A stretch of DNA of 62,085 nt, the filler included, from Globobulimina sp. (Eukaryota), in NCBI GenBank assembly GCA_003354225.1. It is 22 parts of 22 records of this genome, joined end to end, with 100 filler letters (N's around TTAATTAATTAA, not from the genome) between each part and the next. Parts side by side here need not be neighbours in the genome. Positions count along the whole stretch, not along the records: positions 45,247 to 47,970 come from PIVH01005187.1; 21 more parts are not named here. One strand, given 5' to 3'. A program made the position numbers and the translations under genes. Positions 22,061 to 47,970 of the stretch are shown piece by piece. How positions within the stretch are numbered: the stretch's first letter is position 1; each line of letters opens with the position of its first letter. The notes below the pieces were generated by a model, which saw only the letters and a program-made list of their open reading frames with translations, was not told the origin of the DNA and did no database searches.

Positions 22061-22835
22061 TTTTATTAAAAACCCGTACTGTATCCCTGGGGAATTGGTG
22101 GAAGTTTTACCTTTTTATATTTCTAAAACTATCAGAGGTTTCTCCTGGTCCCAGCGATACAGAATTTGTACGAATTGGCTGTACTTAAAAATTCACACAA
22201 ATTTATTATATATAAAATATATACAAAATTGTTCTAAATTTCTATTATATATATATAGTATGAATATATTTATGAAGTTGTCTTGTTTTTGACTGTGAAG
22301 ATACAACTAACTTTTTTGGCTTAACGATATGTTCCAAAAGATAAGTTGTATAGATTTGATTCAATTATCTGAGACGGTTTTCTATAGGTTTGTTATAACT
22401 TTGTCTTGGGTTTGCAAATCCAGAACAAAGTCAGAACAAAGTCAGAACAAATTAATAATTGAACCAAATGTATACATCGTTTAGTTTCAACGAGTGGTTT
22501 TCAACTCTGACTAAATTTGTTACTACTACTTCAGNNNNNNNNNNNNNNNNNNNNNNNNNNNNNNNNNNNNNNNNNNNNTTAATTAATTAANNNNNNNNNN
22601 NNNNNNNNNNNNNNNNNNNNNNNNNNNNNNNNNNATTTTGGTGGCGCAGTGGTGAATATCGGTGGCGCAAACAAAAATTTCATCTCTTTTGCACGAAATT
22701 CTTGCTAAAGTTAGTGAAATATGTTAATGTTCAAAGAAAATAGTAATATTTTCCATGTTTTATAAGAAAAATCAAGCTATTTGTAACAAATTCTTTCTGA
22801 AAGTTGCTGAAACGTAACGTTTTTCCAATATTGTT

Positions 22836-23275
22836 GTAAAATTTAACAAGTTTTTAATCGAATTTTTAATAAAATTGCCAAAATGTGTAGTTTTTGCAGA
22901 GAAAGTTGCATGATTTTGCATGTTTTATGAGAAAAATTATGTTATTTGTGAAGTTTACCAAGTTTTTGATCGATTTTTAAATAAAAACTGTAAAAATATC
23001 TATTTTTGCAGAGAAAGTCGCATGATTTTGCGTGTTTTATGAGAAAAATCATGTTATTTGTGAATTTTACCAAGTTTTTGATCGAATTTAAATAAAAACT
23101 GTAAAAATATCTATTTTTTGCAGAGAAAGTCGCATGATTTTGCGTGTTTTGTGAGAAAAATCGTGTTATTTGTAAATTTTACCTAGTTTTTGATCGAATT
23201 TTAAATAAAAATTGTAAAAATGTGTAGTTTTGCAAGATTTTGTAGGTTTTATGAGAAAAATCATGTTATTTTCAA
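22836..23275. repeat. About 112-bp tandem repeat, roughly 3.5 copies
   Basis: GCAGAGAAAG anchors at 22896, 23008 and 23120. Confidence 0.9.
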
Positions 23276-24451: not shown

Positions 24452-24870
24452 TCGACACAGAGAGTCGATTTAAGACAGAGAGAGTCGATTTACGACACAG
24501 AGTCTCGATTAACGACACAGAGTGTCGATTGGCGACAAAGTGTGTCGATTTGTCGACATAGAGAGTCGATTTACGACATAGATTGTCGATTTGCGACACA
24601 GATTGTCGATTCAAGACACAGATTGTCTATTCAAGACACATAGTGTCGATTTACGACACATAGTGTCGATTTACGACACAGATTGTCGATTTAAGACACA
24701 GAGTGTCGTTTTAAGACACATAGTGTCGATCTACGACATAGATTGTCGATTTAAGACACAGAGTGTCGTTTTAAGACACATAGTGTCGATTTACGACACA
24801 GATTGTCGATTTAAGACACAGAGTGTCGTTTTAAGACACAGATTGTCGATTCAAGACACAGATTGTCGGA
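24452..24870. repeat. 20-21-bp minisatellite, about 20 units, each a mini-palindrome
   Basis: Units of the form (C/A)GACACA-GA(T/G)-TGTCG-ATTTA. Confidence 0.92.
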
Positions 24871-25244
24871 TGACATATACAGGTTCGTCCAACTAGTCAT
24901 AAATGAATGTTGCTTGATAGCAGAGCTGTTGTTAGTTCGATTGTTAACAATGTATGATTCTATTGTAAGGAACAGTTTTCTATTTTCGGTACTCATGGCT
25001 CGGCGATGGCTACAGAGTGATTACTTATTGTGCTACTCACTTTGTATACTATCGCAGACCCCTTGAGCCGATATGCTACATGGAAAAGCTTTGAAAATAT
25101 ATGTAAGTATTGTTTTATCACAAATTATTTCTACTTATTCTATGAATGGGTAAATATGATGACTAGAGTAGGAGTTATACTTTGAGTGAGAGAAGCCACA
25201 CTTTGTAGGGTCCAGTGCCTTCTTGTTGTAAAACATGACTCCCA

Positions 25245-29954: not shown

Positions 29955-30870
29955 AAAATATTGAGTGCAAGGATAAAAAATTCAAAATTTCAAAAATCAA
30001 ACATAAAAACTTGCGAATTTGCGTGAATTGTTTTTGTAACACTTTGTTGGACCCAGAGGTTTTCGACAGAACTTAAAATTTTTTGAGTGCAAGGATAAAA
30101 AATATTGAGTGCAAGGAAAAAATAGAATTTTCCAGAAATTTCTAGAATTTTTATTTTTTCAAAAACTATTTTTTATCATTGCACACAACACAATGCTGTT
30201 ATTACAGTAATGCAACGCACAAGTGTGTTCAGTTGTAGTTTCGTGATGTTTTACATCTTTCTAGTCAGTTGTTAATGGTAACGTAAGTTAATACCTGTCT
30301 ATGCAGTTTGTTGATGGTGGATATAACTGCTTGTAAGATCAAAGAGTCAGTTGTGAAGTTGCAAAGATGACGATTTGGCTTGAAGTGACGAAAGGATGGT
30401 GTTGGATTAAATGTCAGAAAAGTTTCTAATTTTTGAGTGAAAAACTGTTTTTTTTGAGTTAGTAGCTGATGGATTGACAAGTTGTTTGCAAAGAAACTTT
30501 TTCAAAGAAAAGCATAAAAAACTTTGAAGTTATCGAAAACCTCTGGGTCCAAAACAAAATATTTTTGTTGTGAAATGGTGATTTGAGATGAACCAAGTTA
30601 TCATATTTTTTTTGTTTGTTTTTTTGTGCGAATATGCGTAGTTCTTTTTTAATTTTTATCCTTGCACTCAAAATATTTTTGTTGGGAAATGGTGATTTGA
30701 GATGAACCAAGTTATCATATTTTTTTTGTTTGTGTTTTTATGCGAATATGCGTAGTTCTTTTTTAATTTTTATCCTTGCACTCAAAATATTTTTGTTGGG
30801 AAATGGTGATTTGAGATGAACCAAGTTATCAATATATTTTTTATTTTCTGGAAATTTCTGGAAATTTCTT
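29955..30870. repeat. Foldback region including a 114-bp tandem repeat
   Basis: TTGAGTGCAAGGATAAAAA on the left is inverted relative to TTTTTATCCTTGCACTCAA on the right. TTGGACCCAGAGGTTTTCGA (about 30047) is inverted at about 30533. Units start at 30556, 30670 and 30784. Confidence 0.8.
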
Positions 30871-30888
30871 AAAATTTTTGAAATTTTT

Positions 30889-31018
30889 CGTCTCTGAAAT
30901 TCATGTACAAAATCCGTTTCTGAAATTCATGTACAAAATTCGTTTCTGAAAATCATGTACAAAATTCGTTTCTGAAATTTTATGTACAAAATTCGTTTCT
31001 GAAAATCATGTACAAAAT
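30889..31018. repeat. 26-27-bp tandem repeat, about 5 copies
   Basis: CGTTTCTGAAAATCATGTACAAAATT units. Confidence 0.9.
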
Positions 31019-45146: not shown

Positions 45147-45248
45147 NNNNNNNNNNNNNNNNNNNNNNNNNNNNNNNNNNNNNNNNNNNNTTAATTAATT
45201 AANNNNNNNNNNNNNNNNNNNNNNNNNNNNNNNNNNNNNNNNNNNNCC

Positions 45249-45276
45249 GTACCACGTACCACGTACCACGTACCAC
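45249..45276. repeat. Four copies of the heptamer GTACCAC at the contig start
   Basis: Read directly from the sequence. Confidence 0.85.
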
Positions 45277-45347
45277 GGAGTACGGATTACTAAAATTTAC
45301 TTTAATTAATCACTGTGTGCAGATAATGCAACACCTTAGAGGTCAAC

Positions 45348-45518
45348 ATGTCAAATAAATTTCAACTGCGGGCTTACTGTTATCTGGATAGAACTCAACC
45401 GCAATATGCATCTTTTGTGGGTACGGTTACCCAGGGCGATTTAATGGTAGAGGGTATGGCCTCGCTATATGTAGAGGTTGCACCGGGGAACGAGGTGTTC
45501 CACATGGTTGATATTGCC
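45348..45518 (+). pseudogene. Bacterial microcompartment shell protein (BMC-T, CcmP/CsoS1D-like), 5' fragment
   Basis: AGAGG RBS, then QLRAYCYLDRTQPQYASFVGT...GMASLYVEVAPG...VDIA. Homology and higher GC end abruptly near 45518. Confidence 0.75.
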
Positions 45519-45685
45519 ATAATTCTATTTCTGATATTGATACTACGTTTATTAATATTACTGAAAAGTCGATAAATTCAGATATTTGGTTACCAGGTAA
45601 TAAAGAAACTTCAATAAACGCGATTCATTCGTTATTACAAAGTATTCAATCTGAGATTAGAATATTATCAAAAGAATATAATTAA
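45518..45685 (+). CDS. 5'-truncated orphan ORF (55 codons) of the phage-like array
   Basis: HNSISDIDTT...ILSKEYN* has no start codon and ends just before promoter module 1. Confidence 0.5.
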   Translation, partial: HNSISDIDTTFINITEKSINSDIWLPGNKETSINAIHSLLQSIQSEIRILSKEYN

Positions 45686-45695
45686 TTAACAATAC

Positions 45696-45793
45696 GTGCC
45701 AATTAAATGTGTATTTATCGTTGAGTACACATTATAATAGGTATCAAGTTAATCAATTAGTTATCCATAACAATAAAGAGAGAAAATATTATG
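45696..45793 (+). promoter_or_regulatory. Promoter/leader module 1
   Basis: AATGTGTA-N12-TACACATT dyad overlapping TATAAT (45733-45738), then an A-rich leader ending GAGAGAAAATATTATG. Confidence 0.8.
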
Positions 45794-46273
45794 TCTATAT
45801 TATCAGTTCGTGCCATTGTTTTATCATCGCTTGTTGACGGTTTGTCTGTTTCTGAAATCGTTGAAAAAATTCGTGAACTACGTCCAGATTCACAGGCTGG
45901 TGTCACTGAAGTTAAGTGGTACATCAGCAAAATGAAAAAAGAAGAATTCTTGGACAAATCTGGTTTGGTGACACCTAAGGGAACTCTATGGGTTTCTAAA
46001 ATTGAGTTTAAGTCGTCAAAAACTCAAAAAACTGCAGAAAGCGGTGTACTTTTGAAAACGGCCATGACCAAGAGTACCAAATCTGCAAAACCAATTCATC
46101 CTCGATTAATTGAATTCAAAAAAGCGATTTGCGAAATGAAAGCGAAAGACTTGACTGTTTACCTTAAAAGTTTATGTAAAGATTTAAACATTCCTTACTA
46201 TAAGAAAATAGACAAAAAAGACGAATTAAAAGCGAATAAACTTGACAGAATTCATGCAGTTTTACTTGGTTAA
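45791..46273 (+). CDS. Phage-like basic protein (HTH-like N-terminus, Rho_N/HeH-like C-terminus)
   Basis: GLSVSEIVEKI..RP......VKWYISKM and LTVYLKSLCKDLNIPYYKK..K.EL. Has its own promoter, RBS and terminator. Confidence 0.7.
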   Translation: MSILSVRAIVLSSLVDGLSVSEIVEKIRELRPDSQAGVTEVKWYISKMKKEEFLDKSGLVTPKGTLWVSKIEFKSSKTQKTAESGVLLKTAMTKSTKSAKPIHPRLIEFKKAICEMKAKDLTVYLKSLCKDLNIPYYKKIDKKDELKANKLDRIHAVLLG

Positions 46274-46316
46274 ACTTAATTAAACTAAATTAAACTTAAC
46301 AAATAACAAATTCTTT

Positions 46317-46350
46317 GGTGTACACGGATAGTTTTGTGTGCACCTTTTTT
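46317..46350 (+). terminator. Rho-independent terminator
   Basis: GGTGTACAC...GTGTGCACC followed by T6. Confidence 0.85.
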
Positions 46351-46599
46351 GTACCTAAAATCCATCGTATAACTGCTAACTGTACTTTTTGGCCCATCAA
46401 TCTGCATATCTTAGGTCATCCTAGGTTAATCCTTAGCTAATATTAATGTCGTACTAATACGTTATGTCAGGTCTAAGACTAAAGTTAGACAGAACTCTTC
46501 TTAAGTATGTTAGAATTGACTTATAGTATTGGTAATTAAAGTACCAATTATGTAATTAAAGCACCAAAATGTAATTAAATTTAATTGCACATTATTGGC

Positions 46600-46682
46600 A
46601 TCTTTTTGTATACTTTATTAATCGGTATGATATAATAGTCTCAAGTTAAATAAATCATAACAACAAAGCGAGAAATATTATG
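46600..46682 (+). promoter_or_regulatory. Promoter/leader module 2 (extended -10)
   Basis: TGA-TATAAT (46628-46636). The 52 bp from TATAAT to ATG are identical to module 3. Confidence 0.8.
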
Positions 46683-47066
46683 TCATATAAACGTATCAGT
46701 TCAGTTAATTTAAAAGACGATGTTAAAGTCAACGATAAAGTAATCTTTGTTCCATATTTTGGTGTAAACTTTATTGAACTTACTGTCACTAAAGTTTTAA
46801 AAACTAAATTTATAACAAGTCATCCATTTGATAGAAGTAAAACTATGGAATGGGACACATGTGGTAATCCTAAAGGTGCAACGTCAACAAGATGTGAACC
46901 ATTTGTTCTTCCAGTTTGTGATGAAAATATCGAATGGAAAAATGTCAAAATACAAGAGGATTTGGAACAACGAAAAATAAAAGATGCAAGAAATCAAGTA
47001 ATGTCTTTTGTAAATTCGTTAAATCCAAAATCACCTTTATGGTTAAAACTTCAAGAAATACTTTAA
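46680..47066 (+). CDS. Phage-like hypothetical protein (SH3/KOW-like N-terminus)
   Basis: 128 aa, VKVNDKVIF...LTVTKV..T pattern, shared leader and RBS. Confidence 0.7.
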   Translation: MSYKRISSVNLKDDVKVNDKVIFVPYFGVNFIELTVTKVLKTKFITSHPFDRSKTMEWDTCGNPKGATSTRCEPFVLPVCDENIEWKNVKIQEDLEQRKIKDARNQVMSFVNSLNPKSPLWLKLQEIL

Positions 47067-47071
47067 ATTTA

Positions 47072-47160
47072 GTGCCAATTAAATGTGTATTTATTGTTGA
47101 GTACACATTATAATAGTCTCAAGTTAAATAAATCATAACAACAAAGCGAGAAATATTATG
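47072..47160 (+). promoter_or_regulatory. Promoter/leader module 3 (hybrid of modules 1 and 2)
   Basis: 44/45 identical to 45696-45740 and 52/52 identical to 46631-46682. Confidence 0.88.
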
Positions 47161-47409
47161 AAAAGAGTAACTCAACTTTCAGTTCATGTTAATGATGAAA
47201 TATCTGATGACATTTTAGCCTTATGTATTGAACACGGTTTCACAAAATTTTATGCAGATTCTGTTTTTAATACTGTTGATTCAATGCCAATTGATATCAC
47301 TGATAAAGATAAAATGAAATCTTTGTCAAAACTTGTATCAGAATTATTCATGTTATGTATTTCGTTTGAATTAAAAGTTTTCAATATTGAACCGCAAATC
47401 TGCCATTAA
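47158..47409 (+). CDS. Phage-like hypothetical protein (83 aa)
   Basis: The shared leader ends exactly at its ATG, and a terminator follows. Confidence 0.7.
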   Translation: MKRVTQLSVHVNDEISDDILALCIEHGFTKFYADSVFNTVDSMPIDITDKDKMKSLSKLVSELFMLCISFELKVFNIEPQICH

Positions 47410-47456
47410 GTTATCCATTTTTTAATTAATTTGATGTAACAAAACTGGCAATTAAT

Positions 47457-47489
47457 AGTGTACGGGCAATGCTGTTCGTGCACTTTTTT
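47457..47489 (+). terminator. Rho-independent terminator
   Basis: AGTGTACGGGCA...TGTTCGTGCACT followed by a T-run. Confidence 0.85.
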
Positions 47490-47744
47490 GTACCTAAAAT
47501 CCGATAAATCTGTCATTCTGCGTTTTTCTCATTGTCCCCAGAGCACTTCCTACGTCTTCCTGTCATGATTCTAAGAACACTTTAAGAGCTAGCGAGTACG
47601 TTATGTCACGTCTAGAGTTAATGTTAGAGAGAGATGACTCTAGGTGTCTTAGAAGCATACAGAGTTTATATCGTTCTATGAGATGTTTTTATATAACTGG
47701 ATTGCTATCTTACGTGAATACCGTTATATGCGGATTTTAAATAT

Positions 47745-47779
47745 AAAAAAGTGCACATCCTGTTGAGAATGTACACTTT
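47745..47779 (-). terminator. Rho-independent terminator of the convergent gene
   Basis: Minus strand reads AAAGTGTACATTC...GGATGTGCAC-T6. Confidence 0.8.
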
Positions 47780-47791
47780 GTTGTTATTATT

Positions 47792-47970
47792 TTATTTTTC
47801 TAAAATACAATCAGTTTTATAAAAAGTTACATTAACAAAAATACCTTTTTCATTTTCTAACGTAATTACTACATTTTCACCTTCAGTAAAATGTGTCACT
47901 GTCACGAATTTGTGTTCTGTAATTTTGCCGAGATGTTGATTGTCCGGGATATTCCTCGCCCGCTGCGGCT
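47792..47970 (-). CDS. Phage-like ORF, 3' part (convergent)
   Basis: ...GKITEHKFVTVTHFTEGENVVITLENEKGIFVNVTFYKTDCILEK* followed by a terminator of the same family. Confidence 0.55.

Follow-up and report, generated by a model that had tools for sequence, protein, structure and literature searches.

Two intergenic spacers on a 2.7-kb contig in the draft assembly of Globobulimina sp. carry related sequences at a fixed distance behind a terminator, and the question this locus raises is what kind of element has been duplicated there. A first-pass annotation, made from the DNA alone, proposed a single-strand recombination site resembling those of integrons, an ssDNA promoter or primer signal, or a non-coding RNA, and we have re-examined both spacers and their setting with these readings in mind.

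A phage-like contig built from repeated cassettes

The window (the whole stretch of DNA analysed, 62,085 nucleotides) comprises 22 of the 48,370 contigs of a 70-Mb draft assembly, each about 2.7 kb and joined through N's by linkers of the form N50-TTAATTAATTAA-N50 that recur every ~2.8 kb. Its contigs are ordered by length, so that those adjacent in the window are not linked, and the neighboring contigs carry eukaryote-type genes. Both copies of the element lie wholly within the single contig at 45247–47970, an orphan of low coverage and prokaryotic build, with three near-identical promoter/leader cassettes, three short ORFs and three intrinsic terminators; an assembly-wide search found its motifs on no other contig. 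We infer from its sequence that it is probably part of the early or hyperplastic region of a co-sequenced lytic phage of a gammaproteobacterium, on the basis of the cassettes, a leader match to motB of T-even phages, and the mostly phage look-alikes of ORF2; a hallmark gene is absent, and T4-type core genes were not found on the 2.7 kb available. The features outside the two copies are as follows.

45247–47970, unstranded: putative phage early or hyperplastic region, 2724 bp, 31.7% GC (PIVH01005187.1, contig C5187)
45697–45790, plus: P1, PeSL-like promoter/leader cassette (putative function), 87% identical to P3 over 61 nt
45791–46273, plus: ORF1, 160-aa member of a small orphan family, winged-helix-like at its N terminus
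46318–46350, plus: T1, intrinsic terminator, 11-bp stem and T6, -13.9 kcal/mol in the sense and -6.2 kcal/mol in the reverse direction
46351–46363, plus: conserved terminator tail (GTACCTAAAATCC), including TAAAAT, a candidate -10 box
46532–46586, unstranded: three degenerate direct repeats of ~19 bp (GTAATTAAA...) between copy 1 and P2, seen in the sequence
46590–46679, plus: P2, promoter/leader cassette, final 52 nt identical to P3 (52/52)
46680–47066, plus: ORF2, 128 aa, without sequence homolog, with language-model look-alikes
47072–47157, plus: P3, promoter/leader cassette similar to the motB early promoter/leader of RB51/RB68
47158–47409, plus: ORF3, 83 aa, no family found
47458–47502, plus: T2, terminator and tail, from an intrinsic-terminator scan and folding
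47731–47776, minus: T3, terminator that faces T2 and has the shared tail, from a motif search and folding
47792–47968, minus: 3′ end of a convergent ORF, an open frame that runs off the contig and stops 16 nt before T3

P1 consists of a dyad overlapping the -35 region, a TATAAT at 45733, an A/C-rich leader, and a GAGA before the ATG; the dyad between the -35 region and the -10 box is shared by P1 and P3 and is lacking in P2. P3 matches the early promoter/leader of motB in the T-even phages RB51 and RB68 (83.6% over 54 nt, E 3e-6). Judged by sequence, P1–P3 have the attributes of PeSLs, namely a repeated sigma-70-like promoter, a stem-loop and a Shine-Dalgarno sequence before orphan ORFs, and the available parts of two reports describe PeSLs as repeated promoter/stem-loop cassettes around orphan ORFs in T4-type phages (PMC2839356, PMC4122927). 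As described there, PeSLs flank orphan ORFs as on this contig, which shares the motB-like leader, but a PeSL ends at the start codon, whereas the element described here lies downstream of terminators and its second copy precedes no gene. Kinship with PeSLs thus explains the context of the element and not its core. We note also one joint of P2 to the P1 leader among the contigs of run X1, which may be an assembly-graph effect; loose ends of that run (46647/46685 and 45853/45889) lead to an extra leader cassette before another ORF and to a short ORF1-like piece, neither of which was found in the assembly.

ORF1 has 14 homologs at E ≤ 0.001, five of them at 1e-10, all members of the family coming from environmental contigs and sharing a conserved EVKWYISKMKKE block; its predicted structure (pLDDT 72.6) gives weak wHTH matches, and a domain and fold comparison returned nothing at E ≤ 0.001. 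The look-alikes of ORF2 are mostly phage proteins, and in one cluster 19% carry PF24203 (Phage_ProQ_C_like), so that a ProQ-C-like relation may be taken as a lead.

The three terminators are of equal length and fold more stably in the sense of the upstream ORF (-13.8 to -15.1 kcal/mol) than in the reverse (-5.5 to -7.4 kcal/mol), and T3 with T2 forms a 26-nt, 88% inverted repeat around copy 2. A promoter and terminator scan found no sigma-70 -35 box upstream of the tail. The T4 middle-promoter motif, which we take to be a box followed by 11–12 bp and TAAAAT, has a spacing that fits the tails at all three terminators, making them candidate middle promoters; a search of the literature gave no support for this reading of terminator tails. 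On the minus strand at 46538–46563, within the direct repeats, there is also a box-13 bp-TAnnnT arrangement pointing into copy 1, which presumably fits the same motif.

Some further observations concern the setting. The contig opens with four GTACCAC repeats, and a 75-codon ORF at this end has a relative in run X3 that differs from it almost solely at third positions; the left end (45247–45575) may be chimeric, as contigs of run X1 part from it at ~45520. Tyrosine-recombinase genes on contigs C5248, C4497 and C1238 (all of assembly G000) show that bacterial DNA is present in the assembly, and tandem arrays with units of 20, 112, 114 and 26 bp lie on other contigs (window positions 24515–24928, 22834–23234 and 30555–31018).

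Geometry and conservation of the two copies

The first-pass annotation had noted that the post-terminator tail is followed at a constant distance by a 36-bp core, and both observations stand: GTACCTAAAATCC begins at 46351 and 47490 and the cores at 46458 and 47597, in each case 107 bp further on, and the cores are ungapped and identical at 29/36 positions; in 500 Markov-resampled shuffles, with all diagonals considered, the best 36-mer reaches at most 26 and on average 20.8. Both copies are covered by Logan contigs of run X1 without a single differing letter, which excludes a late assembly slip, with the proviso that X1 may be the source sample and not an independent one. The complementary stretches quoted for the flanks are likewise present; the description of these flanks as diverged is too simple, because homology continues on the same diagonal on both sides of the core (29/55 over 46403–46457 and 12/22 over 46494–46515), falling to background at 46364–46402 (9/39) and 46516–46590 (21/75). 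The homologous block is therefore 113 bp long, ungapped, and identical at 70/113 positions (62%), considerably wider than the 36-bp core, and each copy has the same layout: a terminator with its tail, 39 nt that are unrelated between the copies but equal in length, 113 nt that are homologous, and then background.

46364–46402, plus: copy 1 variable segment, 39 nt, of which 46381–46397 can pair with E. coli rpsC +1 to +17
46403–46523, plus: copy 1 scaffold, outer helix arms 46422–46437/46508–46523 and inner 46471–46481/46496–46506
46458–46493, plus: copy 1 core, holding the ATG of a 20-codon frame (46464–46526) without Shine-Dalgarno sequence
47503–47541, plus: copy 2 variable segment, 39 nt, pyrimidine-rich, with a complement that reads like a ribosome-binding site and ATG
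47542–47662, plus: copy 2 scaffold, outer helix 47560–47662 and inner helix 47610–47645
47597–47632, plus: copy 2 core, roughly equidistant from the tails of T2 (107 bp) and T3 (about 112 bp)
47603–47740, plus: 45-codon frame, with AGCGAG, the leaders' Shine-Dalgarno hexamer, ahead of its ATG; coding is unsupported

The 113-bp blocks have diverged by 38% (Jukes-Cantor distance 0.53) and contain no indels, which has a probability of 0.002–0.05 under assumed indel:substitution ratios of 1:10–1:20 and points to some constraint on the geometry. Conservation is uneven (p 0.0026 for a 29/36 window over 152 nt), with the excess in the core at p 0.07 only when measured inside the 113-nt homologous part. 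T3 faces copy 2 from the minus strand, placing it in a 227-bp gap between convergent terminators, and copy 2 can therefore not be a 5′ leader; no terminator was found to close copy 1. That no ORF explains the element, as had been proposed, is borne out by stops in all long frames and by mismatches distributed 20/21/15 over the three codon positions, and a shared open frame with third-position bias, as in protein-coding paralogs, was not found; the cores do contain an ATG TCA that opens 20 codons in copy 1 and 45 in copy 2. We conclude that the duplicated element is real, constrained and non-coding, and belongs to no known family.

Folding, and the readings it bears on

A two-helix fold on the plus strand is shared by both copies in the same register, the outer helix pairing 46422–46437 with 46508–46523 and the inner one 46471–46481 with 46496–46506 in copy 1 coordinates; UACGUUAUGUCA is left in a bulge on the 5′ side, and the terminal loop carries GUUAGA-AGA. 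In this arrangement 43/54 cells are paired and 5/27 pairs are changed on both sides, three neighboring positions of the inner helix exchange one Watson-Crick pair for another, and the paired fraction is 28–46% when the arms are slid by 1–3 columns. Shuffles reach 43/54 paired in 6/500 cases and 5/27 double changes in 20/500, counts that are not to be read as probabilities; a shared-register helix score gives p 0.02–0.03 for the best helix and p 0.013 for two helices in 600 column shuffles. The eight G-U cells, as against three A-C cells, lean towards the plus strand. Overall the shared fold stands at p 0.01–0.04, post hoc, as the statistics were chosen after the data had been seen and there are two copies. 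The RNAalifold energy of the two-copy alignment is ordinary (p 0.34), and in a wider-window test 101/1000 shuffles have an inner helix as good. We regard the structural evidence for a shared RNA fold, from folding models, as suggestive and post hoc.

The copies differ in how readily each would adopt this fold by itself. In copy 2 it is the predicted optimum (pair probabilities 0.97–0.99), whereas in copy 1 the optimum is more stable by 4–17 kcal/mol, according to where the sequence is cut. The proposal that the core sits in the loop of a long hairpin holds in part for copy 2, where the outer stem has probability 0.97–0.99 and the core lies partly in the inner stem, and fails for copy 1: folded as 46403–46540 the outer-stem pairs have a probability of 0.0, and the optimum instead joins the core to the 3′ flank (-30.0 as opposed to -17.0 kcal/mol), while with the sequence cut at 46524 the rival folds are level (-16.1 against -15.8 kcal/mol). 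Neither as plus-strand RNA (z -1.85 and -0.19) nor as plus-strand ssDNA (z -1.19 and -1.02) do the two copies fold clearly better than shuffles, and the minus-strand DNA folds give z -0.34 and -0.39. A mutually exclusive small bulged hairpin within the core, with 8 pairs, 16/16 cells paired and one compensatory change, fits all seven core differences; it has a probability of 0.01, and 238/500 shuffles reach its score. That this second hairpin also has a compensatory pair indicates that such patterns arise easily with two sequences.

These data leave an integron-like or other single-strand recombination site as a hardly credible reading. It drew on the dyad GTCTAA-N7-GTTAGAC of copy 1, which comprises a GTTRRRY (at 46484) and a partial dyad spaced by 7 bp, as in attC or attI, and the small hairpin accommodates all seven core differences; copy 2, however, reads GTCTAG-N7-GTTAGAG, so that the dyad is not kept and the GTTRRRY is missing. 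In the available part of one account, attC sites are 57–141 bp in all, with RYYYAAC and GTTRRRY flanking a palindrome (PMC3053210). The sole RYYYAAC-GTTRRRY pair on the contig (46294/46484) spans about 197 bp, exceeding that size, and there is no inverse core within it; GTTAGA lies inside the outer helix and not at the base of a bottom-strand hairpin as in attC; and the DNA folds are ordinary, with the small hairpin at its low probability. A cassette array is absent, there is no recombinase among the ORFs of the 2.7-kb contig, the rest of the phage genome being missing, none of the 12 TIGR02249 matches in the assembly passes the cut-off for an integron integrase, and no joints at the cores occur in the run X1 contigs, which are of low depth. 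Identity of the element with attC or attI is thus largely refuted, and of the three options first put forward a non-coding RNA is the best, with ssDNA folding being ordinary and a recombination site unsupported.

We tentatively favor the view, which is quite possible, that both spacers specify small RNAs of the lytic phage, paralogs of one another in which the scaffold is constant and the 5′ segment varies. Each RNA would be transcribed on the plus strand from just behind an intrinsic terminator, with initiation at a promoter inside the conserved tail or with read-through followed by processing, and would be ~160 nt long, with the fixed-length variable segment at its 5′ end followed by the conserved scaffold. 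The scaffold would consist of the two helices, the inner one capped by the GUUAGA-AGA loop, and, between them, of a conserved block that stays unpaired (UACGUUAUGUCA); the conserved single-stranded parts could bind a protein, leaving the variable part free to pair with a host mRNA. The copies are paralogous, with a fixed geometry, a non-coding pattern of change and modest covariation, and this reading is supported by the ungapped 70/113 identity, the uneven conservation, the lack of codon periodicity, the shared fold, and the position of copy 2 in its gap. Transcription, fold, protein partner and target are in contrast conjectural. It is weakened by there being two copies, by the alifold result, by the fold preference of copy 1 and the weak single-copy z-scores, and by the lack of a -35 box before the tail and of a terminator closing copy 1.

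The main alternatives deny either the function or the RNA. The spacers could be relics of cassette shuffling, in which a promoter-ORF-terminator-spacer module was duplicated and its ORFs exchanged by PeSL-type recombination, with the spacers drifting without function; we consider this somewhat unlikely. The contig is clearly built from duplicated cassettes (P2/P3 52/52, P1/P3 87% over 61 nt, three paralogous terminators), shuffling mediated by PeSLs is seen in T4-type phages in the parts of the reports available (PMC2839356, PMC4122927), and neither the alifold energy nor, within the homologous part, the core excess is significant, but drift does not readily account for 38% divergence without indels, for compensatory changes, or for an unrelated 39-nt segment of equal length sharply bounded between two conserved blocks. 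It is also unlikely that the element is a protein site on double-stranded DNA, an array of YTAR half-sites serving as an origin, topoisomerase or nucleoid-protein site where transcription ends, its length set by helical phase. YTAR words are in excess in both copies (12 against 4.9 expected, p<0.0005, and 8 against 3.8, p 0.006, in 2000 dinucleotide shuffles), six of them at identical positions, copy 2 is centered between convergent terminators, and ORF1 is winged-helix-like. Hairpin arms, however, also yield a YTAR excess, general palindrome content is not significantly raised, and there is no consistent 10.5-bp period among seven indicators in two windows; a 5.2–5.3 period occurs in copy 1 only, and a purine period of 11.1 has p 0.04 and 0.02, uncorrected.

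It is improbable that the copies are small peptide genes whose mRNA would be structured and repressed in translation, with an antisense RNA converging on it, in the manner of type I toxin-antitoxin systems. The most conserved block does straddle the ATG TCA, and 3/4 real starts on the contig are ATG TC; both frames open with M-S-x-L-x-L-x-L-(D/E)-R, in copy 2 an AGCGAG lies 6 nt ahead of the ATG and is masked by pairing in the optimal fold, and the T3 tail points into copy 2. Against this, one frame has 20 codons and the other 45, the fewest changes fall at third positions (9, 10 and 6 over 19 codons), copy 1 has no Shine-Dalgarno sequence, and homology runs 60 nt upstream through stops.

Variable segments, known systems and relatives

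If the spacers do encode small RNAs, the variable segments are candidates for pairing with host transcripts. Positions 46381–46397 of copy 1 are complementary to E. coli rpsC from +1 to +17, through 17 contiguous nucleotides with 15 Watson-Crick and two G-U pairs, both of the latter at third codon positions, and the sole match to this wobble pattern in the 4.64-Mb E. coli chromosome is the rpsC start; E. coli is a stand-in and may not be the true host of the phage. At least 15 Watson-Crick pairs against 65 start regions from a segment of that chromosome are reached by 0.1% of shuffled copy 1 segments and 0.2% of shuffled copy 2 segments in 4000 trials, and by 0.4% of 800 whole-element shuffles of each. 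Scaled to ~4300 genes, a match to some start would be expected at ~7% for the copy 1 segment and up to ~40% for both whole elements, and a match to a start of the ribosomal-protein class is, by our own scaling, a 0.3–1% event. The duplex energy is ordinary (p 0.25), no rpsC or other evident host start was found in the assembly, and in another phylum the pattern occurs in 43/101 genomes compared with 44/101 for a control; as it occurs at the background rate elsewhere, the one notable point is where it falls in E. coli. For copy 2 there are no pattern matches in E. coli or in any of five genomes, and 8/151 in Bacteroidota against 9/151 for the control. Pairing of copy 1 with rpsC is thus a possible lead, drawn from sequence complementarity. 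The larger scheme, in which a modular family of antisense RNAs would combine a protein-binding scaffold with exchangeable fixed-length 5′ guides covering essential host start codons in an RNA-programmed host takeover, with ribosomal protein S3 as the copy 1 target and the ProQ-C-like ORF2 as a possible partner, is quite improbable.

Lytic-phage RNA genes are poorly catalogued, and a paralogous pair that keeps its scaffold while its 5′ segment varies has the build of a guide RNA. Scaffold-plus-guide RNAs such as the IscB omega RNA, the IS110 bridge RNA and CRISPR RNA have a fixed-length variable segment beside a conserved structure; this contig differs in having no nuclease, recombinase, Rfam match or array. 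If the rpsC pairing is true, it would provide a phage route to retune host translation through exchangeable RNA guides; if it is false, the locus still holds a conserved element not previously described, and the collections searched contain no close sequenced relative of this phage lineage. Other phages encode sRNAs that act on host mRNAs, lambda PreS on dnaN being one and VpdS of VP882 also acting in trans (PMC12197685), and these resemble the present case in being small intergenic phage RNAs, here with possible pairing to the transcript of an essential host gene. Those in the available part of that source are single RNAs of 20–90 nt, mostly from temperate phages, and include no paralogous pair that shares a scaffold but has exchanged 5′ segments. 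T4 rnaC and rnaD (species 1 and 2) are likewise a pair, of 120–140-nt phage RNAs of unknown function; they have no sequence similarity to either copy (8 comparisons, p 0.6–0.9), and the contig differs in being without tRNA genes. In the partial literature searched we found no description of a paralogous scaffold/variable RNA pair.

The Rfam covariance models (4227 families) give no match up to E 5 on the contig, ARAGORN no tRNA or tmRNA gene, and searches of IMG/VR, JGI metagenomes, GTDB, phage and plasmid records, and the assembly itself yielded no third copy; exact-pattern scans miss copies with a change inside the pattern. One IMG/VR pattern scan gave two loci, in GC-rich HK97-like head genes and attributable to chance, and the others gave 0, 0, 3 (a gene start) and 9 loci, all chance matches, as were those in seven stretches of JGI metagenomes and the five matches in GTDB genomes. 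One JGI match (L115:1-600) fell by chance in a CRISPR array with a 36-nt repeat, and the 14 matches having the 14-nt gap share 13–21/56 positions. A JGI contig with two copies of the pattern (L110/L111) was set aside as palindromic, frameshift-ridden and GC-rich; it is an inverted self-duplicate with scattered frameshifts, and probably a long read folded back on itself. An nhmmer profile built from the two copies and run over 136 loci gave, beyond this contig, no match with E below 0.02, and BLAST of phage records and plasmids found no match on the core. The covariance model (R1) returns the two true and five weak matches in the window, and on five phage records one match, rejected at E 0.8 across a coding junction. 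Protein-led locus searches gave two weak 29-residue matches in one case and none in the others. Vibrio phage VS-ABTNL-3, which has no copy of the element, does carry a leader like that of the contig and, with long gaps between them, two early ORFs that look paralogous (L146:1745-3611).
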